A stretch of 64,000 nt of DNA. Source: Psilocybe cubensis. Lineage: Eukaryota. Below, piece by piece: positions 1 through 59,543 of this stretch; position 1 is the stretch's first letter, and every line of letters starts with the position of its first letter. The notes under the pieces are model-generated. The model was not told the DNA's origin and made no database searches. It was given only the letters and a program-made list of their open reading frames with translations. Location of the stretch: the NCBI GenBank assembly GCA_017499595.2, contig CM039008.1:2108001-2172000 (forward strand), read 5' to 3'. Made by a program: the position numbers and the translations under genes.

Positions 1-546
1 TGCCGTTTCATTGAAGGCACGAAACTGTCGGTGTGCGGTAGCCACACTAATAAGGTACATATCTTTGACGTAGCCAATAATTACGTTCTGCAGACCCTTA
101 CCTCAAGTCCAAAAGGTTTGATCTTTTGCCGTATCTTATGCTTTCTGACGCTCAAACATGTTCACAGAGGCTCACATGACACAGGCGATTGCAGTAACCA
201 TGGCGGAGAGTCGCAAAGTCTGTATTGCAGCATCTTCTAATGGCTTCATCTATCTGTGGGAAAAGCGGAGCCAGCCCTTTGTTGGCGTCGGTGAAACTCA
301 AACACAGCCTGCAAATACGCTCCTTCACTATGCCAGAACCAATGGTCCCTTCATTGCTTTTGTCATGGCATGCACTTACGCTAACTGGGCACCATATCTT
401 TTTGCTGTAAGAATTCGTCATCTGGCCTCAACTTTTATATCTAATAGCAATGTCTACCTTAGTTGTTCGCTTTCTTGACTTCGAAGGCGCAATATTACGG
501 GCTCCTCAACGCAAATGAGGGAAATTTAGAAAATTTAGAGTTGTAG
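1..546 (+). CDS. 3' part of a WD40-repeat-like protein with a hydrophobic C-terminal segment (5' end outside the window)
   Basis: Three spliceable exons: CRFIEGTKLSVCGSHTNKVHIFDVANNYVLQTLTSSPK / EAHMTQAIAV...IAASSNGFIYLWEK...FIAFVMACTYANWAPYLFA / LFAFLTSKAQYYGLLNANEGNLENLEL*. The GT-AG introns (~116-167, ~407-462) are in compatible phases. 'GSHTNKVHIFD' and 'ASSNGFIYLWE' resemble WD40 strand c-d motifs. Confidence 0.6.
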
Positions 547-1581
547 CCAGCATTTGTAGTTACGCGCACTCATAATGTGTATATAACTTTACGTGGTTTT
601 AATGTCTGCGAGTAGCTAGTGGGATCAGGTCTGAAAGTCAGGCATTAGAAATACCTCAAAGGTAATGCGTGTTTGGTACAGGGCATACTTAAATGATACC
701 ATTATAGAGTTGTGAGCAAGGAGGATTTGCGAGGAGGTTAAGTGATCTTCAAACCGTAACTTATTGTGGTTTTGACCCCCTTTTTAGGTGCTAGAACTCC
801 GAAGCAAAGTCCAGAATGACAGCGAAATCAGAGTTACACACTCAGCGCACTTGACGAGTCAAACTACGCTCTATGCTACCGGTCATCGTGTTCAATGAGG
901 CTGGTTTAAAAGCCGTCGCCCGTCGCATGCGTCCCTTTCACGAGAGGTAAGCAGAAATTTTCGTTCTGATCATTCCAGGACATCGGTGCCCACGGCTCAC
1001 TTCCATGAACAGGTGAATCTGCGGTCGAAGGGCAAGGTCGGGGTGAAATCTACACGATAGGGTCTCGACAACTGAGCAACACGATAATCTTCCACTCAAA
1101 CGCACGTTATTTGGTCGCTGCTCAATCTGCGGGGGTTAAGCCGGTCACGATACAGGTCCTGAATCATACTTCGTCATAGGTAAGTTGAAGTTTGTAATAC
1201 GTATATCTCTGGACGGATCTGTATCGCAAAATCTGATTTGCAAGAATCTGATATATTTGATTTAGATTAATTCGTTATTAAATTGTTCAATATATCACGG
1301 GCAGCCGACCAGGCAAGCCCACACTCATATTCATGCGTGAATCAGATAGCATTGGAGCGGAGAGCGTAGTGAGTCACTGGCTTCAAGTCTTCTTCCAACA
1401 GATACGGTGCTGATGGAAGATGAAACGGCACAAGTGACATTGGAGCTGGTGGAAATGGCGCTGGTAGACGAGTCAGAGAGGCGGGTCAGCTCACGGAAGG
1501 AGCACGTTCATACCCCGGAACGGTCATATCCACGCGCAGGTTATGCGCTCTGCACGCGCGTGAAGCTCTTTGTATGCGGTA

Positions 1582-2056
1582 CACGTCTTCCGGGCCGGCC
1601 GGATCCGAACACGCTCATAACACGCTCAGCACGCCCTGAACAGAAGGAGTTGTACTTTCCACTATACCCTTGTACCCTAATCGTGCCTGTTTCCTGCACG
1701 CCACCTTGAACACTGTATGCACCGACGAGCTGCAAGACTTAACTCGCTTCTGTCAATCTAACTGCAAATACCGAGAAAGTTGATCTGTATGCGCCAATTG
1801 GAGGAGCACGTGTTGAGGTGCTTCCCGCGGCACACGTCTTCCGGGCCGGCCGGATCCGAACACGCTCAGCGCGCCCTGGAGTTGTACTTCCCACTATACC
1901 CATGTACCCTAATCGTGCATGTTTCCTGCACGTTACCTCGAACACCGTATGCACCGACGAGCTTCAAGACTTAACTCGCTTCTGTCAATATAACTAATAC
2001 CGAGAAAGTTGATCTGTATGCGCCAATTGGAGGAGCACATGTTGACGCGCTTCCCA
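1582..2056 (+). repeat. Imperfect tandem duplication, two units (~1582-1826 and ~1833-2056)
   Basis: Both units run from cacgtcttccgggccggccggatccgaacacgctca through ggagttgtact and ccgagaaagttgatctgtatgcgccaattggaggagcac to gcttccc, differing by small indels. Confidence 0.9.
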
Positions 2057-3473
2057 TCTTTCTCGCTGTCTCTCAGGTCTAAAATTTGCGCACAACATAC
2101 GCAGACCTCAATAGTTCCTTTAATCGGCAATCTTTACTGGGACAACTTATTCTTTCCCCCTCTTCTGGGTACGCCAACTTCCCTGCGAGCACTGACGTTA
2201 CACCATGACCCCGTGCACCCTTCCTGTAGGCCTCTCCTTTCTCATGTTCTTCGCAGCATCGCCGTCGTCAACGCCAGCGACAGAACCTCCAACGCAACTG
2301 CAACGCCCCCGTCTACACATAGCGTCAGCGCCAGTTCATTTTTACCCAAAAAGACGACACTGTTGATTTCAGCGACTAGGGTGACGCTTAGACGCGCGGA
2401 ATCTGAGTATCATATACTGATGCTCATGATTAGATTGTGTTCCTGATCCCCCTAGCTCTCCGATGTCCTACATAGTGTCTCCCCAGTCAAAGTCGTCGAT
2501 CATAGTCGAAACACACCGTGTGCCTGTCAGTTGAGCTTGTAGGAAAGACGCCGTTGATGCCCCGCGCAGGTGTGTTTCCTTCCCCAGCTTGTCTTGCGTG
2601 ACCTGTCAACCAATGCCATCGTTCTGTAGAATCGTCTTCGGCCTGTCCACCCTTCCATGACGCTCTGCGTTCAATGTACGTCGTGATTCCATACTGTCTA
2701 TATCTAACCTTAATCTTCGTCTTCGTCATAAGACATCTAACATCCAAGTTCTACAGGACTACATACGAGGCGGAAAAAGACGTGCAGACGTGCAGATTAA
2801 CCATCCACCTCCCCAAAACAGCTCAACGCTGAGATAAAGGCGCAGCTCTGCGACCCGTACGCCCACGACGCTGGCTCGGACACATTCTCCCTTACAAACA
2901 TGATGAAGAGGAAGAGTCCGACGAGTTCCACGGGCTTGAAGAGCGCTTCCGTGGTCTCGATGAGATTGCTATCCCCGTCGCGGACGTGCACAACCTGGTT
3001 CCCTGCACAAAACCCAATATTGCTGGGTTCATGAAAATATTCAAGGTTTCCTTTCCCTTCCCCCCTTTTTTTAAAGGTGCTTATCGTTGTTGCAACCCAT
3101 TTTCATCCGCATACAAACACGATGCAATTCATACAATATCTAACCAAACGCGCCAATTCGCGCAGAAGCAAACCCAACTCCCGTTCAAACCTCTTCATGT
3201 CTCCCGGACTGGCGAAATCCGTAAACGCTGGTAAAACGCTCAGCCAACGCTCAGCACGAGTGTATCGTGTGCATGGAGTGCATGAACGAGAACGCTGCAT
3301 TTCCTCTCGACTTTACCTACGTACTTGTGGAATGCAGTAGATTAGTCTGCGGCTTCATGAGCAGTGCAGGAGGCGGGAGCAGACCTAATTTTCCAACCTG
3401 TCGTACTCGTCGCCATCAACGACAGGAGGGTATTATTATTTTCTTTATTTTTATTTTATTTACATTATTACCT

Positions 3474-4157
3474 TTACTTAGAGTTTGGGACAGCTGTTGC
3501 GTCTACGACATTCTCGCTCGCGGGGGGGATGCCGCTTCCGCTTCGACGAGATGAGCATGGGATGCCGATCTCAAGTGTAGCGCCCGTGGGCACGTCGGAT
3601 GCGAGTAGGGAGTCGATGGATGAGAGGGGTTTGTTGATGGAGGCGGTGGTGGTGTTGGTGAGCGTTGATGATTTTTTAGTTGGGTGTAGGGGTGGTGGCG
3701 AGTGTGTATGTGAATGTGGATGGGCATGTGCATGTGGGGAAGGGGAGGGGGAAGAAGAGGATGGTGGATGTGAAAGGGATGATGAGGATGGTGGATGTGT
3801 GAGTGAAGAAGCAAGTGGCATCAAGGACGGGAGCAAAGGCGACGCCTTCAGTTTCGGCGAGTCGACAGAGAGAGGGAGCGGCGGGAGCGGTGGGGAAGTC
3901 GGCAACCCCTTTGCCTGCAGTTGCATCTCCTTCGAGCGCGGCCTACCTTCATCCACAACACCAGCACCAGCAGTCACATCCTTCTCCTTATCTTTATCTC
4001 TATCAGACGAAGCAGAAGCAGCACCCGAAACGACCGACAAAAGTCCAGACGACTTGACCGTACGGATCGTATCACTCGATCCCTTCCTGCGAAGCGTCGC
4101 AACACTCGAACTCGACGCCGAGCTACTCGTCTTTTTATGCTCGTTACCCGACCCCAA
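3474..4157 (-). pseudogene. Ser/Pro/His-rich low-complexity coding fragment, probably an orphaned exon of an unidentified gene
   Basis: 227-aa ORF with typical fungal disordered composition (PTSPPLPPLP, HAHAHPHSHTH). It ends at a GT donor-like site (AA|gtaaag), and downstream candidate exons at ~3100-3400 carry stops/frameshifts. Confidence 0.4.
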
Positions 4158-4417
4158 CCCTGTTCCTGTTCCTGTCCTCTGCTTTTACCTCTACTGCTAC
4201 CAACAACGAAATTCCAGAGTGGCAGAGCAGCGAGATGGGAGTGGACGCGTCAATGTTGCACTCAGCGGCGGTCCTTGAAGGCGCGATTCATATCTCCAGG
4301 TGAGTAGAGTTTGTGTATTGTGATTGGATGTGTACTCAACCGATGTGCTGCAGTGTTTCTGCATGCTGTCCCCCTCTCACATCTACCTCCCACATCCTCG
4401 CCGCTGCGCCAAGTGAC

Positions 4418-4678
4418 AGCAGCATCCCCTAAACGACGCCCTGGTATTGACTCCCCGCCCATCGCTGCAGTTCCAACCGATTGCAAACGTCGACGACGCA
4501 CCTCTACAAGGTATGTGTATTGCAGTATGTAGTCTCAACGACGGCGCTGACGGTGTGCTTGACAGAACAATCTTGAGGATGTAGTATGGTGAGCAGCATC
4601 CCCTAAACGGCGCCCTGGTACTGACTCACCGCCCATCGCTGCAGTTCCAACCTATTGCAAACGTCGACGACGCACCTC
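4418..4678 (+). repeat. Direct duplication of ~87 bp (4418-4504 and 4593-4678)
   Basis: gcagcatcccctaaacg(a/g)cgccctggta(t/c)tgactc...ttgcaaacgtcgacgacgcacctc occurs twice with few substitutions. Confidence 0.9.
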
Positions 4679-4719
4679 GACAATCCCCTCTGCCTCTCTC
4701 GTCAACAACATGCCGCCAA

Positions 4720-5098
4720 AACGCGATGCCATAGCGAGTGTCCGTTGCAATGCATGCTACGCGGCGTTTGACTTGACGCACAGACACATGGACACGCGGG
4801 CGCGGTTGCGACAGGGAACAAAACAGTACGCAGAAACCTGACAGTTTATAAACACATTGCTGACGCACCTTGCCAGTGAGGCGCTCCTCACCGACTACAC
4901 TTCACAGCCTGCTGCGTACACAGATGTGGCGGGCACTCGGAACGCAATGCCATAGTGAGTGTCCGTCGTAATGCATGCTATGTGGAATTTGACTTGACGC
5001 ACAGACACACGGACATGCTGGCGCGGTTGCGAGTGGGAACAAAACGGTGAGTAGAAACCTTGATAACCCATACCTACAGCATTGACGCACTTTTCCAG
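4720..5098 (+). repeat. Diverged direct duplication of ~155 bp (~4720-4876 and ~4941-5098)
   Basis: aacgc(g/a)atgccatag...tttgacttgacgcacagacac...gggaacaaaac...tgacgcac...ccag is repeated. Confidence 0.85.
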
Positions 5099-5254
5099 CA
5101 ACGCGCTCGTCGTTGGCCAGCGGTTTCTTTTCATCGCAACGCACCCCGGTGTCAGTCGGTCTCCGGTGTGCGTACGCTGTTGTGGCGGGCATTCTTGGGT
5201 AAGTAAAGGTCCTTTCCATCATCTCCTATGACAGCCCCCGACACCCTTGATCCA

Positions 5255-5380
5255 TAAGAAGATACGAGGCCAACGATGGTGATTTGAAGTGACTGGAAGT
5301 GGTAAAACAACAGTGAGCATCAGAGTATGACATAGTTTTCCAATGACTGACCTCTTGCCGTCGCAGTACCCCTCAACTCC
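5255..5380 (+). pseudogene. Orphan P-loop NTPase fragment (Walker A TGSGKTT followed by an intact intron)
   Basis: 5292-5312 ACT GGA AGT GGT AAA ACA ACA = TGSGKTT, then a 54-nt intron gtgagc...ctgac...cgcag (5313-5366). The flanking reading frames are broken. Confidence 0.45.
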
Positions 5381-5936
5381 CTATCGCAGTCGCACGCCAA
5401 CAACACCGATACAGACACGCTGAAAAGACAAGAGGTGAGCAAGCGTGAAATTCCAGCTGCGTAGGTAACTTACAAGTATTCGCAGTTCGTCACTCTGCTC
5501 CCTTGACCCCGCCTGTGTCGTCGTCGTCATCGTCGATCTCAAAGAAGGAATGGCAGGTAAGGTTAGTACAGTAATTAAGACTGATAAAGGGTGGTGACGC
5601 ACCTTGGCAGGACATTCCTAACAAGGCGCATCGTGTACGACAACGCGACTTGTCATAGCGCGCACCCCGCCATCAACTAGTATACAAGCGAAGGTAAGTG
5701 AGCAGAAAAAGAGGAAGAGTCTCACTCACATGACACTGTTGTCCCAGATCTTTCCCGCGGTGCGAACTCTCATCGCAGCGCCGCCGTCTCGAACCCAAGG
5801 TGCGATTGGCTGGTAATGACACGAGGGCGATAGCGGGGGATTGGAGGACGCTGGAAGGATGGCCGTACGTCCACGCCGCTGGCTCAGTCGACACCCTCTG
5901 AGAAAGAGGAGGATGAAGAGTCAGGCAAGAGCTTAG

Positions 5937-6746
5937 AAAATCTCAGTACTCCAACATGACCCGTCTACACACATCTGCCAATGCGGCCTGGAGACCCCCG
6001 ACGCCTACATCTCGGAATTTAAACCCCCTTATGCACCCTTTGCCCGTGCGAGAGAACGAACCCGTGCTTTGAATGCGGTTAAAATGGAAAGGATGTTCGC
6101 GAAGCCGCTTGTGGACAGTCTGGAAGGGCACATCGATGCTGTTGAGGTCCTGTACAGGCGACCTGGCTTCCTAACAGGTGTGGCCAGTGGAAGCTGGGAT
6201 GGAGGTGTGTGCGTGGGTTCTCTAATCACGCAGGCGATAATCACTAAATGATGGAATTGGAATAAACCAGGAATAATCCTCCACAATCTTGCAACCCGAA
6301 AACCGATCGCCAAAATTCCCCAGGCGCACAAGGGAAAGCGTCAGGGCTATGCTTCTCTCCGGATGGTCAAAGGCTTCTTAGCTGCGGTGTCGATCGTAAC
6401 GTGAAGCCTATGGGCCGTTGGAGACGATAACCTGAATACGGAGGTGGTAAGTCAACACCCTCGGACGACAGCGCTGCATGTCCGCATCAGCGCTTCTTTT
6501 ATTTACTGAGCTCAATTTCTAATCCTTTAACCGTTGCCCTTTAGCCTCTTAATGTATTCCCGGGAAAGCTGCGTTTAAGCGAGGATCAATCTATCCATCT
6601 TCTCACTTTCCCAACATCAACCGAAACTATCACATCTGTACGATTTAATGAGCGAATCATCGGTGCTCGCAAGTATAGGATCCGACGGGACATTCACGCT
6701 GTACGATATCAGGACTGGAAAGGCTGAGCGACGAGTGGTTATGCAG
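5937..6746 (+). pseudogene. SOF1: Truncated, frameshifted SOF1/DCAF13 (U3 snoRNP WD40 protein) gene fragment with introns retained
   Basis: After repairing several 1-2 nt indels it reads KISVLQHDP...PTSRNLNPLMHPFARARERTRALNAVKMERMFAKPLVDSLEGHIDAVEVL...ASGSWDG | IILHNLATRKPIAKIPQAHKGK.SGLCFSPDGQRLLSCGVDRNVK | ...TITSVRFN.SESSVLASIGSDGTFTLYDIRTGKAERRVVMQ. This is the characteristic Sof1 N-terminal half. No ATG, an internal deletion, and the C-terminal half is missing. Confidence 0.85.
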
Positions 6747-7407
6747 GTAAAACTCATCTCATCCTAACCACATTTTTTTAATCTCACCATGGATGTGCAC
6801 GACCTTTCTCCCTACACAAAGCTCAATATTACCGGGTTAATGAACAGGTACGTACTGCGTTATTACCATGTCTTAGGTTACACATCGTGACGTCTAGTTG
6901 GAGGCGTTAATTCATCGTGCCGATAAATGTAGTTTTAGCTTCGATTGTGCTTAGAGGTTCGTTTTGCTGCTGTACCGGCAGCTTCTGCGAGGATGTAGAG
7001 AATTTGTGAACGAATACGGCACTGGCAATTCTATCGCAACACCCGCAGAGTTTACACCCCGCAAAGGACATCTTGACCCACAACTCCCTGACTCACCCAT
7101 CATACGAGCAGTCGATTATCAACGGGTCACTCGGCGAGCCAACTTATTTCATTAATTATGAATGAACCGGAGTGAACTTGACTGAGAAATAAAATGGATA
7201 TGCGACAGTATAATACAATATGAAACAGTAGACTACACATTAGAGGTATCGTTGAATACAAAAGTGAGCGTGTATATACAGCAGATCAAATACTGAAAAT
7301 CGAAAGCAAGAAAACAAGAAAACGATTAGAAAGATGACGGGGAGTAGGGTAGTGGGTGAGTCCCCCAAGAAGTTATAAAGACGCTGGAATGACGCTGAGA
7401 ACGCCTG

Positions 7408-7969
7408 CTAGGTGCGGAAGGGGGAAACCTCGTATTTCTTGCAGATTGCGAGATACTCGTTCCTCGACGGATACTTGGCGCGAATCTGCGCCTCGATAGC
7501 GATGTCGTTCAGCCGGTGCCTATGGTCGAGAGCGAATCGGTCGATGTTGATATTGTGCGCTTCGGGCGTCATAGGCCGGGTGAGTGCGCGTTTGTTGTCG
7601 AGAAGGGTATGAAGATCCATTATTTCTTGACGAATCCGAAGGAGGTCCTCGATTTCCTCGAAGTCGGCGTTGCAGTCAGCGTCGGTGGTGCGTAAATTCT
7701 GGGCTTCGACATCCGTGATTTGAGCGCCTAACGAAACTGGGATGAGCAGATTCAAAAAAAAAAAAAATTCAACGATGCGTACGATTGCGACCTCTGACCA
7801 TCACCGGGGTATCGCTACGCTCTTCGATATAACGAAAGACCTCCCCACAAACCGACCCCACATACGCGGATACGCGCTCCGTTATCCAACATCCCGACGC
7901 GATGCTGTGCTTCAACCCATACTTGAAGCCTACGATGGCCGAAACGACTTGAGAGATGAGTGCAGCCAT
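7408..7969 (-). CDS. Small two-exon hypothetical protein (~170 aa)
   Basis: ATG at 7969 gives MAALISQVVSAIVGFKYG...VMVRGRN. An intron gtacgc...poly-T...ttag (~7781-7728) joins in frame to RAQITDVEAQN...KKYEVSPFRT*. No recognisable domain. Confidence 0.55.
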
Positions 7970-8488
7970 GGTAAGAGATTCGCGGTTAACGAATAAGCGG
8001 GTGGGTGTGGAGATCGATGTGGGTGGTAGTCGGTAAGAGCGAGTGAGCGAGGGAGTGAGTGGTTGTGGTTGTGGTTGGTGATAAGAAAGGCTGCGGGAAA
8101 GTTGTGTAAGTGGGATCAATTTATAGATGGTGGTGACAAACGATGGCAAACGAACAGATTAAAGTACTCACTGCAGACTCACACTAGGGAAGGCCAAAGA
8201 TTCAGAATTTTCAATGTCTGCAGGTGAGTCGGGTGTAGGCGCGCCAGGTAGGGCGCCAGCTATATTAAGTACCCAACGAGTGTAATAAATAGAATTGCGC
8301 AAAACGCTGAAAATATATCATATTTATTAATGAATCGCGCACTACACATTGACGACTGCGAGATTTTTCAAAGGGCAGCGAGTCGCCAGAACGACGCATG
8401 CCATCGTGTTATCATCGTCTGCGAGTCGACATCGCGCCAAAAATGCGAATTCTTCGCGCGCTTGTCGACTCGCTCAGCGAGTCGATTA

Positions 8489-8858
8489 CTGTAAGTTCAG
8501 GTGTATGTTTAACTTACAGCACTTACTTACAGGAATTGTGTAAGTATGACATACACAATTTGTTTTCTTTGTGTGTATGTTTTACTTACACAAGTGCTGT
8601 TTGTATGACTTACAGCAATTGTGTATATTATACTAACACCGGACAAAAAGAAATTGTGTAATCTCGGTGTTTATTCTATTTACAGTCTACTTACAGCAAT
8701 TGTGTTTGGTCGGCATACAGCCACCAAACACAATATGTCTTTGCCGACTGTTTGTTTTTCATACACGTGTGCTGTATGTCGAACTTACAGCGAAACTTAC
8801 ATAAGACATGTAAGTTTTCTGCTGTATGTTTAACTTACAGCGGTCGGCGCCCGCAGTG
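8489..8858. mobile_element. Solo right arm of a CACTG/CAGTG (CACTA/EnSpm-like) foldback element, same family as 58878-59543
   Basis: Ends ...aacttacagcggtcggcgcccgcagtg (8858), near-identical to the right arm of the 58878-59543 element, and is rich in acttacag subterminal repeats. No matching left terminus (cactgcgggcgcc) was seen upstream in the window. Confidence 0.85.
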
Positions 8859-9244
8859 TAAGCGCTAATCCCTTGAGCTTTTCATAGCAAAACTTTTTCG
8901 CCAAACCACAAGTGTGTTCCGAGGATCACTGAATACATGTAGATACCCAAGGCTATGTCTTGTTCAAAGTAGTACGGCTTAAATTTTCGGTACCGACAAT
9001 GATAAGCGTGTAGCAATGTGATAAAATGGCAATTTCTGACAAAATCATGTTTGCCTAACGCAGGCTAAAGGGAAGCAGTGAGTGTCCTTCTATAAATAGA
9101 CGAAGCCCTGACTATGCCGTGGGTTACCAGTATGTCGTAACGTAACGAAATGTAGATGAGTGACCTTAAACTTTGGATTTATATATTATCAAGTAATGGC
9201 TTCGGTTTTACCGAGTACCCACTATGTTCATAACCGATGATCTC

Positions 9245-11347
9245 TCACCTACTCGCTTCCACTCTCAGAGCCGACTGCCTGAAAAATATCAGATCAACAT
9301 TGAACTTCTCACAGAAGGACTGAAGTTCAGAGCGACTGGATCCGCCAGTCTCCCAAGCTTTCTTCAACCGATCCTTTATTTTCTCGGCGTTGTTTCGCAG
9401 AGCCTTGCCTTCTGGGCCACGGCAAGCGTCGATAACCTCTCTGATCTCAAACGCCACGGCTTCCTTCGTCCCTTTGGCCTGTTTACCGGACCTAAGCAGA
9501 GGCTTTAAACCTTTTTCTCCTGTTCTAACCTCCAGCAGTTCGAATGCGACCTTGAGATTGACAGAAAGGTATGCGGCGGCGGCAGGTTGATCGCCCTCAA
9601 AAGGCCAACAAATCCTGCCAGCATATAAGTAAAAGGAATGCAGTATGAGGTGTAAGACGAACATAGGAATGCCACTCCCGAGAGCCTCCATTACACTGTT
9701 ATGTCCTCCATGCGTCACAAACCATCCAGTAGCCTGTAATGTGTCAATGATTTTAATATATTACATACGGAGGCTAAGGTGATGACTGCTCACCGGATGG
9801 TTGAGAATGTATTGTTGTGGAACCCACTTAGACACAAGTCCAATACCAGAGCTGTTTATCTTAACGATCAGATCCTCCGAGAGACTTGCAAAGGGTGATG
9901 CATAGCAAATTATCTGAGTTAAATCAGTTAATCTACCTAGATCAAATAAACAACAGTTGTCGTCGACGTACGAATGGCATATTCTTCTCAATAAATGCAT
10001 TGATAACCTCGCCAATGTAGTCTTGTTTTGTTGGCCAGAATACGGTCCCAAAAGACATCTAAGATTTTCTTTAGTCTTCAATACGACTGTTCCGAACGTT
10101 AGAAGAGAGATCGGTTATAAAGTCAACCCACATAAACAACTGATTTTTCTCCGTGGCTCTGGAGCATTTTGTTTAGAAATTCTTCAGTTTCAGCCGAGCC
10201 AGTCATTCCTTCTGCAGGGTTGCTAGTTTTGGGAGGAACCAAGGGACCAATCACATAGCATCCTTGTTGTCTTTTAGCGTACCAAGCTTTGAGAGCATCC
10301 GTGGCCACCTCTTCCGCAGCATATCCGGTCGTTATAAACGCGGCATCGCTTCCTTCAAGGCCTCTGAGGGGAGGCATTAAATTGAATCGCCGAAAAGCGC
10401 GATCATGCAATACTTACTCGTTAGCCATTTTAATGATCACCGAAACGTCAATTTCGAGAGGAACCTGACCACGCCCATGAGATTAATTCTGAGCTAAATG
10501 GATTTCCGCACTTCTTGAGGGAAAAATTCCCAGTCGTACATATCAGGAAGGCCGGGAACCTTCACAATATGTCCTCCGGTAGACCCATAAGACTAAGATA
10601 TACGATCAGCGATGCACGACTAACGGCTTCAATGGCTTGAAAGCGCTCACCTGGCCACCCTCCAACAAAATGCTAGTGGGCGCAAATATTTGCATTACCG
10701 AAGATACGTGTCCTGTTATCCACGAAATAACAGGCAAGGATTTCCCCGAAATCTGGCGCGTTGCGTTGATTAGAGGAGAGGCAATGAGCTAAATTGTAGT
10801 GATTATGCGCTCCCTATGATCTATAATTGACGAAAACGCACATCAAGAACGATTATATTTGGAGCCAGAACGGGTCCGAAAATTGTTCCAGTTTTGGCGC
10901 ATGAAACAGGTTTTGATTCTAAAAGATCCTGATAGAGAGCCGGATAGGAATTGACGAGTAGAGGAAAGAGCACAAAAGGATCCTCGGTATCCGATTGAAA
11001 GGCTGAAAGCAACCTATAAACATGTCAAGGTGAGGCACAGCTGTAATGACAATGTATAAGAATACCTAATACGACTCTGAGCGCCGATAGGTATGTCACC
11101 AGAGAACTCTGAGGATATCTCACTCTGAGCTTTCTTGAACAGGTTTGGTGCTAGCAATATAGTTATAACAACATTCTCATGCTCTTTAACCAAACGGGCC
11201 CCAAAGATACAAAATGGTCTAACATGGCCTGAGGAACCAAACGGTGAGTGATTTTGATTGCTTCTGATCGATCTGGATAACACACATACCCCATGCTGGG
11301 AATCCAGAGAAAAGCAAATGTGTAGTTTGTTTGACGGGTGCGGACAT
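9245..11347 (-). CDS. UDP-glycosyltransferase, GT1 family (copy 1)
   Basis: About 11 exons. N-terminus MSAPVKQTTHLLFSGFPAWG|HVRP, then SFGTVFWP, a UGT signature WVPQQYILNHP|ATGWFVTHGGHNSVMEALGSGIPM|ICWPFEGDQ. The exons splice in frame. Confidence 0.92.
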
Positions 11348-11983
11348 CCTAGCTCACGGTGATATCAAATCGACCAAAAAAGGAGAAGGAGAAATAAAAA
11401 ATTCCGACCAAATTGCTGAGGAAGTAAAATATTTATACCTTGTATATTTGTGATTCACTATCGAATGCGATAATTGATTTGACCAGAACAGAGATCGCAG
11501 CGTGTGAAGCGATGGTAATTAGTGGGCTTTATGCCTTGTCGAGACATTTTTAGATCCTTGGCATTGAGGGTTTATCAGTATCAGATCCGGGTAAAATTAC
11601 TCATAAACTTTTAAAGACTCACCTCTAAATGTTGATAATGGGGCCAAATAACTTTATTCAACGTAATACTATGCAATGAGTGTAGACTATCTGTGTAATT
11701 ATAAGTTAAACGTGGTTTGGCGTAGCAATAACTTTTTGACGAGACTTTCTGACCTTGCACTTGCCCATCCCAACAACTACTGCAATATTATTACTCACAC
11801 GATGATCGATGAGGATCCGTGAGTCCAGCCAAGCTCTGGGTGAATGTCATTTGTTGGACGCTCAATTGTGATAATCCTGGTACTTGAGACAGTGGAGTGC
11901 ACGTTTGCGCGTCGACAACACGCGCGGGAGCGGGCATCAAAGCGGACTTTTAAGAAGCGGAGGTAACGGATGGCACTGTCACT

Positions 11984-12905
11984 CACGCCGGACAAAAATG
12001 CTGACCAGTTAGCCTGGGTGTTGCCCTGACCAGTGACGTGACTAGTACCGTGACCAATTTCATGGTGTCACACATTATGTTGTCACGCTAATTCATTATT
12101 AGTAGGATCAACAGTAAATGACATATTACTTGATTGTTTAATATTTCTTCTTACTCCGCACTGAATTACAACGCAAGACAATCAAGTAATTTGCCATTTA
12201 TTGTCGAGCCTACTAATAATGAATTAGCGTGACAACATATGTGTGACACTATGTAATTGGTCACGGTACTAGTCACGTCACTGGTCAGGACAACACCCAG
12301 GCTACACGTCGGGGATTTCCGAATATAAGACGCACTTTTATGTAGAAACCCAATGTTAGTCGTGAATATTGAATACCGTACAAAGATGGATGAATTTCTT
12401 TTCCTTAAACTGTGAATAAATGTGTATGAATATTTCTTATGCCACATACGGGATCAAACTGTAAGAAAATATGCAAGAAATGCTTGACCAACATGTAAGA
12501 TTAATTTTTATCTATTTGTCTATGTCGAGTGGCAGAATCGCTGCAAAATAATTTTTCATTTCGGCAAAAAGTTTATCATACATGGATATTTACAGGTAAA
12601 ATAAATAAAAAAGTTGAAGAAATTCCTACAGATTAACTAGAAATCAACATGGAGGAAAAGATTTTCCTCATAAAAGTTAATCTTACATGTTGGTCAAGCA
12701 TTTCTTGCATATTTTCTTACAGTTTGATCCCGTATGTGGCATAAGAAATATTCATACACATTTATTCACAGTTTAAGGAAAAGAAATTCATCCATCTTTG
12801 TACGGTATTCAATATTCACGACTAACATTGGGTTTCTACATAAAAGTGCGTCTTATATTCGGAAATCCCCGACGTGCTAACTGGTCAGCATTTTTGTCCG
12901 GCGTG
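11984..12905. mobile_element. Foldback MITE family A (~347 bp without its insert), CACGCC...GGCGTG ends, TSD ACT
   Basis: The left arm cacgccggacaaaaatgctgaccagttagcctgggtgttg... pairs with a right arm split by an insertion (...caacacccaggcta [insert] ctaactggtcagcatttttgtccggcgtg). ACT lies at 11981-11983 and 12906-12908. Arms are ~165 bp and imperfect. Confidence 0.9.
12305..12876. mobile_element. Foldback MITE family B (572 bp), CACGTC...GACGTG ends, ~200-bp TIRs, TSD CTA, nested in family A
   Basis: 12305-12504 is the reverse complement of 12677-12876, with no mismatch found by eye. CTA is duplicated at 12302-12304 and 12877-12879. The AT-rich spacer has no ORF. Confidence 0.95.
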
Positions 12906-12925
12906 ACTGTGACAGTGCAGTCCAC

Positions 12926-24548: not shown

Positions 24549-26741
24549 ATGGCAACCACTGCGACCAAGAAGACAGTTCACTTCGTATTCTCCGCGTTTC
24601 CAGCGTGGGGTGAGTTGCTCTCCGTTCACACTTCGAGTCGATATGCCCCATTCAGAAGCTGACCGTTCCTCGCCTCTTGGACCTCTGTAGGACACGCAAA
24701 ATCTTTCTGCGTATTGGCAACTCGTCTGGTCGAAGAGAACGAGAATGTTGTCATCACTCTGATTCTCGCGCCGAATCTGCTGGATAAAGCTGAGACGCTG
24801 ATAAATACCGAGTTAGATTTTTTGAATGCATCTGATGAGACTCGAAAACGTATCAGGTATGTCGTTTCGCAGAGCCAGATAAATACAAATGATGTCGAGA
24901 GCAGGATTTCTCACTGATGTGCATTATACAGACTTCTCTCAACTTTCAAGCCAGACTCGCCTGATTTGTTCAGCATGCTCAAACCTCTTGTTGAGACTTA
25001 TGCTAAAACCTATGGAACACTTGTGGCGTCCAAACCTATCACTTGTGCTATTACTGGGAAAGTTTTCGAAGCAGTATCGACCCCTGACATTGTTGTTCTC
25101 GACGTGAGCAATATTTGTTGGCATCATTGCCTCCCGACAAAACCTGACCTTTTATCAGTTCTTTGCATACCACCAGATGTTAGCCACGCGCGCCATCACT
25201 GGCAAAAAAGTACCTATTGTTACGTGGGTGACTGGACATGTATCGCATTCTCTTCGCTTGTTTGGGCCTGCTAGCCATGGAGGAGCGTTTGAGGACCTTT
25301 GGGATCGAGTTGAAGCGGAGGTGGCACGCACTGGTAAAACTCCACAAGAAATTGGGGACTCGGTACGTCAATTATAACTTCCAATTTTCTCGTATCAGCT
25401 CTGGGAATACTTATGACTGTTTAGGTTTATCATCAAACAGAAGGAAAGATATCCAAGATCGCGGGAGTGCCTGATATGTACGACTGGGAAGTCTTCCCAC
25501 AGACGGTAAGAGCTAACTGATATTGATCCTTTACTTCATATCTCACCGCCATTTTTATTCAGCTTCTGCTCGAAGTTCCTCTCACTGAAATCATCAAAAC
25601 TGCCCAAGGGTAAGTGCTCAGCAATCTATCTAAGGGAATAGAGCGGCGTGTGATGATTAAATATGTTCGACTCCAGAGGTCTCAAGGAATCCGATGCAGT
25701 ATTTGCGACGACGGCATACGGTTTCGAAGAGGAGTCAATTCTAGCGTTTAAATCTTGGTTTGCTAGCACCTCGAAAGAAGCTTATGTTATTGGGCCTATT
25801 CTATCCAACGCAACAGTTAAAGATTCTCCCGGTAGCACAGAGACAAAGGATTTCCTCGACAACGCATATGCCAAATACGGCAAAAACTCTGTCCTTTTGG
25901 TATGTTTTTTAAGACCTACTTGCATCTGTTGTCTCATGCCAACCTGACGGTATACAATTAGATCTCTTTTGGCACTATCTTTTGGACCGCAGAGCAAAGC
26001 TACATCGAAGAGGTGATTGAAGCATTGATCGAAAAGAAATTCCCCTTCGTGAGTCTCAGAGCTTTTTTTCTCTTTTCTCATTCATCAATCAACGTGCTGT
26101 AGATTCTAAGTTATGCATCGCCCTGGGCAAAGATGTCCGATGCGTTGATTGAAAAAATCAAGGCTACAGGCCTGGGTTTAATCTCAAAATGGGTTCCTCA
26201 ACAATATATCCTCAGCCACCCAGTATGTTCATTCTCACGAGATTTTGCATGTTCCACGGCTGATCTAATGTTTTTTGCAAGGCTACCGGCTGGTTCATGA
26301 CTCATGGCGGGCACAACAGCGTGATTGAGACACTCGGAAGTGGAATTCCTGTGTAGGTACTAGTACTACCCCTGTGTATTTTTGACGCTGACTGTATTTT
26401 TTGCCTGTAGAATCTGCTGGCCTTTTGAGGCGGACCAGCCCGTAGCTGCAGCACATATGACAGAAAACCTGAAAGTTGCTTTCGAGCTAATCGAAGTACG
26501 AACTGGAGCAAATGGAATGAAACCTTTGCTCAGGAACGGACGCCAGGCCAAAGGGACACGAGAGGCCGTTGGTGTTGAAATTAGAGAGGTCATCGATGCG
26601 TGCCGCAGTGAGAAGGGAGACGAGCTTCGTAGAAATGCCCAGGCCATTAAAGCCAAGTTCGCAGAAGCTTGGACAGAAAATGGTGTGAGCAGAAAAGAGT
26701 TCAGGGCCTTTGTGGAGAAGTTTGGCCTTGATATTTCTTAG
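24549..26741 (+). CDS. UDP-glycosyltransferase, GT1 family (copy 2)
   Basis: MATTATKKTVHFVFSAFPAWG|HAKSF, ISFGTIFW, WVPQQYILSHP|ATGWFMTHGGHNSVIETLGSGIPV|ICWPFEADQ. Same intron positions as copy 1. Confidence 0.93.
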
Positions 26742-31502: not shown

Positions 31503-33760
31503 ATGCCATCTGGTACGCCGTCCAGCACAGACGTCCACTTGCTGTTCTCTTGTGTCCCAGCCTGGGGTATGTATATGCCACCAGACTACTACGTCAGTAA
31601 AACCATATGCAAAATTGACACAATTTTTTGCTAGGCCATGCCAAACCTTTTTGCATTTTAGCAGCACAACTCGTCCAGGAAAACAAAAATGTGATTGTGA
31701 CTTTGTTACTTACTCCAAGCCTTCTGCAGCAAGCAAAAGCCACAATATCAACCGAGCTTTGCGGTTGTATTGATAACGACGAAACAATTAGAAGAAGACT
31801 GAGGTGTGTTCGTACTGGGACAAATATGTAGCAAGTCAAACCTGATGTTAACTTTCCATGGTTTATTAGGATTTTGAGTACATTCAAATCAGATTCATCA
31901 AACTTGTTCAGTCTTCTCGATCCCCTTATTCGAAGCTACGAGACCATATACCGTGATTTGTGGAATTCCAGGCCGATAACTTGCTCGATGACAGCACAGA
32001 TTTTTGACGCCGTATGCAAGCCTGATGTTGTTATTCTCGATGTAGGTATATCTAGCAAGTGCATGTATACACTCGAACACAATTGACTAATTGTGATATA
32101 TTTATTTAGTTCTTTGCTCATCAACAAATGCTAGCCACTCGCGCTGTTTCCGGAAGAGCCATACCCATCGTGGCATGGGTGACAGGCCATATAGCTCACA
32201 TCAGCCACATATTTGGTCCCACCAGACTTGGGGGTTCTGACGTGGGTTTCACCGCCAGGATTGAAGAGGAAATGAAACGTACGGGGCTTGCAGCCACAGA
32301 AGTAGGTGATATCGTAAGTCTGGCTATCCTGTCCCTTCGAAGATGCACGACTGACGTTGTTACGGATTGGAAGGTGTATAAGCGTACAGATGGCACAATA
32401 GTGAATGTTCCAGGAGCACCGGCCATGTATGACTGGGAGTTCTTCCCTCAGCTGGTAAATATAACGGATTCATTCTACTATATCTTAACCTTTCATTGAG
32501 TACACATCCGCCTGTTTTAGCTCCCCTTCAATGCGCCACAATGGGTTGAAATCGTCATTGCTGCTGAAGCGTCAGTCATACTGTCATATTCAGATATTGC
32601 TGCTGATGTATCTACAAAAAATATTTTACAGAGGCCTTAAGGAGTGCGATGCAATATTTTCAACGTCTGCACATGCCTTCGAGGAAGAGTCTCTAGCCGC
32701 CTTCAAATCTTGGTTTTCAACGCAGCAGAAAGAAGTGCACGTTATCGGCCCTTTTCTCTCATCTAAGAAGACAGTAGATGAATCTCTCTATGCAGCCGCT
32801 CGCGATTTTCTTCTGCATGCGCAAGAGAACTATGACGAGAATTCGGTTCTTCTCGTAGGTGTTTCGTATATACATTCTAAAAATATCCAACAGCGCTTAC
32901 GAAAGTGATCGTTCACCGTACGTCTGAGTGCTTAGATTTCTTTCGGGACAATCTTCTGGCCAACAGTGCATGGTTACATTGAGGAAGTCATAGAAGCGCT
33001 GGTGGAGAAAAAATTTCCTTTTGTAGGTATTGCTTTTCTGCCTCTCTGAAGGCCAATACACCAACTAGAAATCAGATTATTACGCACGCATCGCCTTTTG
33101 CTAAAATATCGGAAAACCTCGTGCAAAAAGTTCAAGCGACAGGAATTGGGCTAATCTCAAAATGGGTCCCACAGCAATATATCTTAGACCATCCGGTGTG
33201 TTCATCAGAATTGTAAGGCATCTATCTCTGAACGGACTATTCTAGGCCACCGGCTGGTTCATGACACATGGTGGACAAAATAGCGTTCTGGAGGCGCTTG
33301 GAAGTGGGATTCCAATGTAAATTTATCATCAGTGTGATATAGCTGGCGGCTGAACATGACCATGCATAGGATCTGTTGGCCTTTCGAAGCTGACCAACCG
33401 ATCGCTGCTGCACATATGAGCGAAAATCTCAATGTCGCATTTGAGCTAGTCGAAGTCAGGACTGGAGAACATGGCATGAAGCCTCTGCTGCGTCGGAACG
33501 GGAGGAAAGCCAAAGGGATGCGCGCAGCTGTAGGTGCCGAGATTCGTGAAGTCATTGATGCTTGTCGTGGGTTAAGAGGAGCCGAACTAAGAAGAAACTC
33601 CGAAGCTCTGAAAGCGAAGCTTGCAAAAGCATGGGGCGACGAAGGTGCTGGCAGGAAAGAACTACGTGCATTCTTGATGAAGCATGGACACGAAATATCA
33701 TGTAGACCCCTGCAGAACGGAGACATATGCAAAACGTGCCTTCAAAATCTGCTTAGATAA
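31503..33760 (+). CDS. UDP-glycosyltransferase, GT1 family (copy 3)
   Basis: MPSGTPSSTDVHLLFSCVPAWG|HAKPF, ISFGTIFWP, WVPQQYILDHP|ATGWFMTHGGQNSVLEALGSGIPM|ICWPFEADQ. Shared intron positions and a short Cys-containing C-terminal extension. Confidence 0.92.
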
Positions 33761-58877: not shown

Positions 58878-59543
58878 CACTGCGGGCGCCGACTGCTGTA
58901 GGTTAAACATACAGCAGTAAACTTACATGTCTTATGTAAGTTTAGGTGTATGTTCAACTTACAGCATATGTGTCGGGAAAACAAAAATTTAACAAAGACA
59001 TATTGTGTTTGGTGGCTGTATGCCAACCAAACACAATTGCTGTAAGTAGCCTGTAAATAGAATAAACACCTAAATTACACAAATTGTGTTTGTCCGGTGT
59101 TAGTAAACCATACACATTTTCTGTAAGTAATACAAACAGCACTTACTGTAAGTAAAAATTACACACAAAGAAAACAATTTGTGTATGTTATACTTACACA
59201 AGTTTTTCAATTCATTTAATGGTGCAAGTCTGACATACACAAATAGTGTTCTTTGTGTGTAAATTTTACTTACAGAAAGTGCTGTTTGTGTCATTTACAG
59301 AAAATGTGTATGTTTTACTAACACCGGACAAACACAATTTGTGTAATTTAGGTGTTTATTCTATTTACAGTCTACTTACAGCAATTGTGTTTGGTCGGCA
59401 TACAGCCACCAAACACAATATGTCTTTGTCGAGTGTTTGTTTTTCATACACGTGTGCTGTATGTTGAACTTACAGCGAAACTTACATAAGACATGTAAGT
59501 TTTCTGCTGTATGTTTAACTTACAGCGGTCGGCGCCCGCAGTG
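58878..59543. mobile_element. Foldback MITE family C (666 bp), CACTG...CAGTG ends, TSD GGA, CACTA/EnSpm-like
   Basis: Runs cactgcgggcgccgac...gtcggcgcccgcagtg, with GGA at 58875-58877 and 59544-59546. Imperfect inverted arms of ~310 bp with repeated acttacag/ctgtaagt motifs. No coding capacity. Confidence 0.95.

Follow-up and report, generated by a model that had tools for sequence, protein, structure and literature searches.

The first 8,858 nucleotides of the analysed window, a 64,000-nucleotide stretch of the Psilocybe cubensis genome (G000:C11:2108001-2172000), represent with high confidence a cargo-bearing arm of a DNA transposon of the CACTA (EnSpm) superfamily that measures 38,940 bp and is probably autonomous. 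Sequence comparison with other copies places window positions 1-8858 at one end of this element, which is young, multi-copy, insertion-polymorphic, probably autonomous and laden with host-gene fragments. A preliminary description of the window had proposed a Pack-CACTA-like element, and its core, a large CACTA with fragments captured at the DNA level and the other end far upstream, is borne out; the element has an open transposase gene, however, so it does not belong to the Pack-TYPE class in the strict sense. Capture of host fragments by DNA transposons is still debated, and the only directly observed model comes from reactivated silent, non-autonomous plant elements. Here, in a culturable fungus, a donor can be assigned to each fragment and the fragments ordered by their divergence, so that the capture models make opposite, testable predictions.

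Positions 1-8858 are matched at ~100% identity in three other places of the genome, and the 23,950 bp of the window copy are 99.967% identical to the complete copy that occupies C11:1990243-2029182. The genome contains five segments of the element in all, which are 99.97-99.98% identical, show the same fragment order and differ from this complete copy at 6-8 sites; the five segments are probably four insertions (Table 1). No left boundary is seen at position 1200, where the mosaic had been thought to begin, as identity to the other copies continues over the whole 23,950 bp inward from 8858. The 38,940-bp unit moved as one piece, since near-identical copies occupy unrelated flanks with 3-bp target duplications.

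The termini read CACTG...CAGTG at all seven assembled ends, including the CAGTG end at 8858 that is followed by TAA, as first described. Chance alone would give 0.18 occurrences of the 16-bp end motif in the window, but three are present: one at 8843-8858 and one at each terminus of a 666-bp miniature inverted-repeat transposable element (MITE) at 58878-59543, which the same transposase likely moves as a non-autonomous passenger. What had been taken for a solo right arm of ~360 bp is a terminal inverted repeat of 1,664 bp, present again at the opposite end of the element. The two ends agree in every one of the outer 1,524 bp (7335-8858), the first difference falling at position 1525. In X9, one of the four sequencing runs examined (X9, X10, X14 and X15) out of 15 listed, the repeat (7195-8858) is covered about twice as deeply as the interior. 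Subterminal repeat families D2, D4 and D9 are found within 8490-8858. Throughout the genome the end pattern is matched 68 times, and a 3-bp duplication is present at 15 of 19 listed short end-pairs, three of the four misses being rows of a single tandem MITE dimer. The triplets at all three assembled far ends match one of the four near ends, with TTG left over. A predicted reading frame of 171 codons sits within the inverted repeat and is thus present twice per element; it has no Pfam hit and no Atlas hit, and its sole database match is an identical hypothetical protein labelled Psilocybe cubensis, which is the annotation of this very frame.

A 25.7-kb element with the same ends (G000:C10:2775720-2801395) is flanked by a TGT/TGT duplication and is probably a second cargo carrier moved by the same transposase. 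Its interior is unrelated to that of the 38.9-kb element and contains 1.6-kb direct and 0.9-kb inverted repeats. Deep inside the 38.9-kb element, window positions 973-1040 and 1585-1655 give short inverted matches (82-89%) to the far arm, as if the inverted repeats had formerly been longer or the arms had exchanged sequence.

The element comprises 98 stop-to-stop open reading frames of at least 90 aa, of which 93 were scanned, the five that are repeated in the second inverted repeat being omitted. One of them matches Transposase_21 (PF02992) with an E-value of 1.5e-12 (47.6 bits versus a cut-off of 28.6), and the exon that follows matches DUF4218 below the cut-off (E-value of 5e-4). Predicted splicing of three short introns yields an open frame of 1,192 codons, while use of an alternative acceptor leads to an early stop. 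The translation displays a C(2)C motif at 564 and an H(3)H motif, in the form HPNHH, at 918; the assignment of the catalytic D, D and E is putative. The gene sequence is identical in the two complete copies. A search for homologues retained 606 among 8,000 candidates scored, with PF02992 in 120 of 120 among the matches listed, and the named homologues are from agarics. Plant CACTA elements have a second, TnpA-like DNA-binding protein; no Transposase_23 or Transposase_24 hit was obtained among the 93 frames, several long ones of which have no family. On this gene content the element is probably autonomous; against this, neither movement of the element nor expression of its transposase was observed, and the signs of excision and reinsertion by its own enzyme are indirect, namely near-identical dispersed copies and an apparently empty site.

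An Spt5-like gene is located upstream of the transposase gene, in the element interior upstream of the window (L068:6417-8914), with a KOW domain above and an NGN domain below the cut-off. Its 28 genomic matches fall into several multi-copy sets (31-44% identity), among them one of five members at 44% and one of six at 36%, each with identical scores; a sister family also keeps the gene in frame next to its transposase. Our reading is that the gene is an old one of the element and not fresh cargo. The sister family, in which five copies of the transposase are present at 68% DNA identity, occupies G000:C11:2665190-2715063 and similar places on C1, C3, C4 and C9. Within the inverted repeat of the 38.9-kb element, a 118-bp stretch (window 8033-8154) is 76% identical to this family, where it is matched by inverted pairs ~48-50 kb apart on C1, C3 and C11. 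The region G000:C8:2.66-2.76 Mb, which holds decayed Spt5-like pieces, WD40 cargo and post-transposase sequence at 67-76% identity to the element, is probably a nest of older relatives.

Inward of the inverted repeat, the arm is pieced together from dead fragments of host genes that were captured at the DNA level. The broken N-terminal half of SOF1, recognised already in the preliminary description, has an intact counterpart on C13 that splices to 448 open codons with WD40 and Sof1 domains. The piece in the element keeps its introns, has a 211-bp internal deletion and is frameshifted in all four retained exons, and was therefore captured as DNA and is dead. The S/P-rich exon piece described earlier was likewise matched to its counterpart, and the three local duplications reported there are real, two of them lying inside the dispersed repeat stretch (4418-4509/4592-4683, 95%; 4720-4890/4941-5111, 85%). 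The comparison adds two VTC4 pieces, MIOS, an SH3-domain gene (whose donor on C2 may be Hof1/Cdc15-like), an unnamed gene on C6 and mitochondrial DNA. The 46-bp piece from contig C21 is a filler-like insertion that sits between two matches to one C6 gene, one of them a weak 17-bp match at 3401-3417. Contig C21 is assigned to the mitochondrion because of its GC content of 34% and a nad6 reading frame nearby; on this probably mitochondrial contig, nad6 falls within an inverted repeat at least 3 kb long (99.97%). The far arm carries pieces of dynactin, a fungal transcription factor, a HEAT-repeat gene, a long reading frame beside an Msb1/RhoGAP exon, and Cpn60, at 76-93% identity.

The dispersed repeat at 4418-5862 shows dense intron-like signals of ~50-80 nt and has copies on C1, C2, C4, C5, C6, C7 and C8, many of them near contig ends. 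An isolated TGSGKTT exon had been proposed in this part of the arm. The motif can be read at 5292-5312 but falls within the repeat, and the corresponding readings in the two relatives with coverage there are TGNGKRT and TRDGKIM; a captured P-loop exon was rejected, as the motif is unconserved and tblastx gives no single conserved frame across five repeat copies. Six of the seven nuclear pieces in 1200-7194 are in the sense orientation on the + strand, which is not significant. Three fragments show no clear skew of the type left by repeat-induced point mutation, and no CpG loss. Run X10, putatively RNA, contains a spliced host SOF1 transcript, a transcript-like contig with the letters of the SH3 donor and two unspliced contigs identical to the element (3608-3779 and 5862-6064), the second of which crosses the junction between the repeat, the VTC4 piece and the SOF1 piece. 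The element-identical contigs span no intron and may be DNA carry-over.

Identity to the putative donors in the window arm declines with distance from the element end (rho -0.86, n=7 nuclear blocks, p=0.014). From the end inward the values are 96.7, 94.6, 79.2, 84.0, 70.6, 69.9 and 75.2%, with the 45-bp C6 piece left out of the counts, and the newest cargo pieces apparently lie nearest the element end. Capture by repair is suggested by this gradient, by the small size of pieces that come from six contigs, and by the filler-like mitochondrial 46-mer. From what is known of the superfamily, a DDE transposase would bind the subterminal repeats and excise both ends, and the unit would be inserted into a 3-bp staggered cut; the same enzyme would mobilise the ~666-bp MITEs in trans. 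Repair of a break or of an excision gap from an unrelated template, or with filler DNA, would add cargo piecewise just inside the inverted repeat, and older cargo would end up deeper and decay neutrally. We infer such a stepwise capture tentatively, as a prospect falling slightly short of even.

In plant Pack-CACTA-like cargo gain, two adjacent insertions, once deprived of their inner ends, are mobilised as a single hybrid that includes the intervening host DNA, so that new DNA is internal. This route is unlikely for the present element, but has points in its favour: it was demonstrated in Arabidopsis (PMC6379663, PMC8903248; these and all papers below are cited from excerpts of their text), the genome is rich in MITEs that share these ends (68 pattern hits), including a tandem dimer, and the far arm is without a gradient. 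It does not account for the position of the least diverged window-arm pieces, which adjoin the inverted repeat. Moreover, the 16-bp end motif is absent inside the element with up to one mismatch and in window 1-8842 with up to three, the donors are spread over six contigs, some pieces measure 45-150 bp and one is mitochondrial.

Stepwise capture beside the repeat has several observations weighing against it as well. The lack of a gradient in the other arm is clear from its values (rho -0.18, n=7, p=0.70), and the correlation in the window arm falls to -0.65 (n=9, p=0.058) upon inclusion of the mitochondrial piece and the repeat. With both arms pooled it amounts to -0.61 (n=14, p=0.022) or -0.45 (n=16, p=0.078). 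The best matches need not be the true donors, and the WD40 match on C8 may be shared cargo of a related element. Matches to the compared loci account for 3,673 of the 5,995 bases of 1200-7194. End-proximal capture by repair is accordingly presented as a lead resting on seven points in one arm. A broader and more doubtful proposal is that the CACTA elements of mushrooms constitute a class of giant, autonomous vehicles of gene shuffling, characterized by end-proximal repair capture, age-layered cargo and a conserved core of transposase and Spt5-like genes, the latter maybe aiding transcription or de-silencing. If true, the age layering from the end inward would be the reverse of the plant Pack-CACTA model, and some chimeric junctions may be transcribed.

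The window copy reaches an assembly gap before its far end. The left terminus with an adjoining TAA that the preliminary description expected upstream does exist, as a TAA-CACTG partner at C11:2029182 when read on the window strand, but it lies 87.7 kb from 8858 and in inverted orientation, on the opposite strand. In the orientation of the element, the flank of the window copy is TTA, which is also the flank of that far end. No pattern hit for a left end in direct orientation was found near C11:2077919 upstream, where the gap intervenes. The three truncated segments stop 23,950, 23,412 and 23,756 bp from unique DNA, and a constant break distance of 23.4-24.0 kb is what a read-length limit would give. 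In the C11:1990243 (TTG) copy, all six private substitutions fall in the first 20,474 bp (p=0.02 if uniform). The missing end of the window copy was likely mis-joined by the assembler to the neighbouring copy.

The assembly would instead be right if the two C11 copies had truly exchanged flanks by recombination between inverted copies, with inversion of the intervening DNA. The opposite orientation of the copies agrees with such an event, as does the TTA that borders the near end of one and the far end of the other; the confinement of private substitutions to 20,474 bp fits a chimera of either origin. We nevertheless regard a real inversion as rather improbable, given that the gap and a 4.5-kb palindrome occupy the expected place of the reciprocal product, that the TTG-flanked far end is absent from the assembly and that the break distances are constant. 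The palindrome, near-perfect and immediately to the left of the gap (G000:C11:2088327-2092808), is probably a contig-end artefact. Two facts count against the transposon reading at this locus: the target duplication of the window copy is unreadable across the gap, and the neighbouring complete copy has unlike flanking triplets. Flank comparisons for the pairing of flanks returned paralogue-level matches only. Near-identical repeats of 39 kb break and cross-join the assembly, and their fragments may pass as false gene paralogues.

We further compared the site with other samples, for which an empty site had been put forward as a check. A 10,553-nt contig of run X9 matches 8859-9195 and diverges from the window at 8859; X9 apparently lacks the insertion at the window site, whereas the element is present in it at other places, at a depth close to that of the flanks, and the inverted repeat at about double. 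This conclusion is weakened by its dependence on a coordinate convention inferred from two other contigs, the letters of the loose end not being displayed. In runs X14 and X15 the element interior is found at roughly half the flank depth, with a common 365-bp deletion (1720-2086).

A spliced gene lies to the right of the element, in agreement with the preliminary description, with seven intron joints in run X10 between 9613 and 10842. A family of paralogous genes, seen as 70-80% repeats, occupies 9200-11000, 25600-26400, 32600-33500 and 47700; by translation these are candidate UDP-glycosyltransferases. An unrelated non-autonomous element at 11980-12909 has 34-bp inverted ends of the CAC...GTG type and, nested in its interior, further inverted repeats (207 bp at 100%). 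This element seems to be missing from run X9, one contig of which departs from the window at 11983.

Table 1. Copies of the element in the genome and features of the window arm (plain coordinates are window positions).
Feature	Position	Strand	Description
Complete copy	C6:3225475-3264414		Flanks TAT/TAT
Complete copy	C11:1990243-2029182		Flanks TTG/TTA, mismatched
Split copy	C11:3026779 to contig end and C15:148028 to contig end		Complementary halves, both GAA-flanked
Window copy	23,950 bp inward from 8858		Ends at 100-N gap G000:C11:2092809-2092908
Window part of element	1-8858		Copy extends 15,092 bp upstream of window to gap
Decayed WD40-like piece, end	1-156	+	~1.2 kb, 75% (75.2%); matches C8:2668093-2669241; continues upstream
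MIOS (WD40) gene piece	1302-1504	+	Donor on C2, 70% (69.9%)
Local tandem duplication	1576-2055		1576-1826/1827-2055, 94%
VTC-domain (VTC4-like) piece	2821-3198	+	Donor on C5, intron included, 71-75% (70.6% in gradient)
Mitochondrial piece	3431-3476		46 bp identical to contig C21
C6 unnamed-gene piece	3483-3527	+	45 bp, 89%
S/P-rich piece	3536-4172	-	84% to 1,257-codon exon on C8, downstream of BTB-domain exon
Dispersed degenerate repeat stretch	4418-5862		65-89% to copies on at least 7 contigs
Short second VTC-domain (VTC4-like) piece	5863-5937	+	79% (79.2%), abuts SOF1 piece
SOF1 5' half	5934-6785	+	94-95% to intact C13 gene (94.6% in gradient), introns kept
SH3-domain gene exon piece	6990-7139	+	Donor on C2, 96.7%, 1-bp deletion
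Terminal inverted repeat	7195-8858		1,664 bp; 98% match to far end of C6 and C11 copies and to C15
171-codon reading frame, two exons, predicted	7408-7969	-	Intron 7737-7782; spliced model open
Outer arm	8501-8858		83-93% to ~666-bp MITE family; short subterminal repeats; CAGTG end
Target-site triplet TAA	8859-8861	+	Same as triplet beside far end assembled at C11:2029182
666-bp MITE	58878-59543		Same ends as element, GGA target duplication

The CAC...GTG termini, 3-bp target duplication, Transposase_21 gene and subterminal repeats are those of CACTA/EnSpm elements, and host coding fragments lie between the ends as in Pack-TYPE elements, which are defined as non-autonomous (PMC8903248). Because an open CACTA transposase is encoded, we classify the unit as a probably autonomous element with cargo and not as Pack-TYPE. 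A strict Pack-CACTA in the plant sense, non-autonomous and moved in trans only, would agree with a window part made of dead fragments and one reading frame of no assigned family, and with a transposase gene that is known here as sequence; the open 1,192-codon frame, shared without change by the two complete copies, makes it very improbable. A segmental duplication merely bounded by MITEs would explain why the outermost ~360 bp resemble MITE arms, but is scarcely credible in view of the base-exact ends in four unrelated flanks with 3-bp duplications, the 1.66-kb repeat that is not found in MITEs, and the transposase inside the element. Helitrons have TC...CTRR ends and a RepHel gene and are devoid of inverted repeats. 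Fragment capture is known for them, and they reach 14 kb in fungi (PMC6431247), but a Helitron delimiting the mosaic inside or beside the CACTA end, as the preliminary description had also considered, has a negligible probability, as position 1200 marks no boundary, the 93 frames gave no hit to a helicase or Rep family, inverted repeats and target duplications are present, and the mosaic is seen only inside the CACTA element, where an old absorbed Helitron-built piece is possible. Plavaka elements, which have TGT..ACA or CATCA..TGATG termini (PMC12730594), were also rejected given the CACTG..CAGTG ends and a transposase with no PF18759 hit.

The EnSpm elements of rusts and Agaricus share with the present element the CAC...GTG ends, the 3-bp duplication, the large size and the transposase motifs, C(2)C and H(3-4)H being given for the EnSpm clade (PMC12730594). 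In Table S1 of that study (Kojima 2025), 24 of 30 EnSpm rows are at least 20 kb long, nearly all from rusts and two of at least 32,767, and the sole Agaricus or mushroom row, EnSpm-22_AB, is 8.7 kb (PMC12730594). By contrast, TET/JBP genes are a feature of those elements, and dead host fragments and kb-long inverted repeats are not mentioned in the excerpts (PMC12730594). No TET/JBP hit was obtained here among the 93 stop-to-stop frames of at least 90 aa, a set that a gene of short exons could escape. Spt5 has no occurrence in the main text of PMC12730594, the comparison being by description and not by consensus sequences. The soybean Tgmt* (20.5 kb; PMC2613891) and Chondrus En/Spm elements (16-20 kb; PMC6431247) are likewise large, with a tnp2 (Transposase_21) gene and subterminal repeats, but have about half the present size, and a patchwork of host fragments is not mentioned in the excerpts (PMC2613891, PMC6431247).

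Among mushrooms, the gene-capturing Helitrons of Pleurotus are similar as DNA transposons bearing cargo (PMC4289320). EnSpm/CMC elements are expanded in Agaricomycetes (PMC5751038), and the excerpts of a Marasmius paper refer to a CMC family in passing only (PMC9674265). In the literature covered, which extends to neither subscription journals nor Repbase, no description was found of a fragment-laden giant CACTA in mushrooms or of Spt5 in a fungal CACTA. Plant Pack-CACTA elements have the same CACTA-type ends, 3-bp duplication and several unrelated host fragments (PMC6379663, PMC8903248, PMC1947982), as in the 5.7-kb soybean Tgm-Express1 with five fragments (PMC1947982). They differ in being non-autonomous and small, with short terminal repeats of a 26-bp core (PMC6379663, PMC8903248). 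The plant model places new DNA internally (PMC8903248), whereas the closest matches in the present arm lie beside the repeat.

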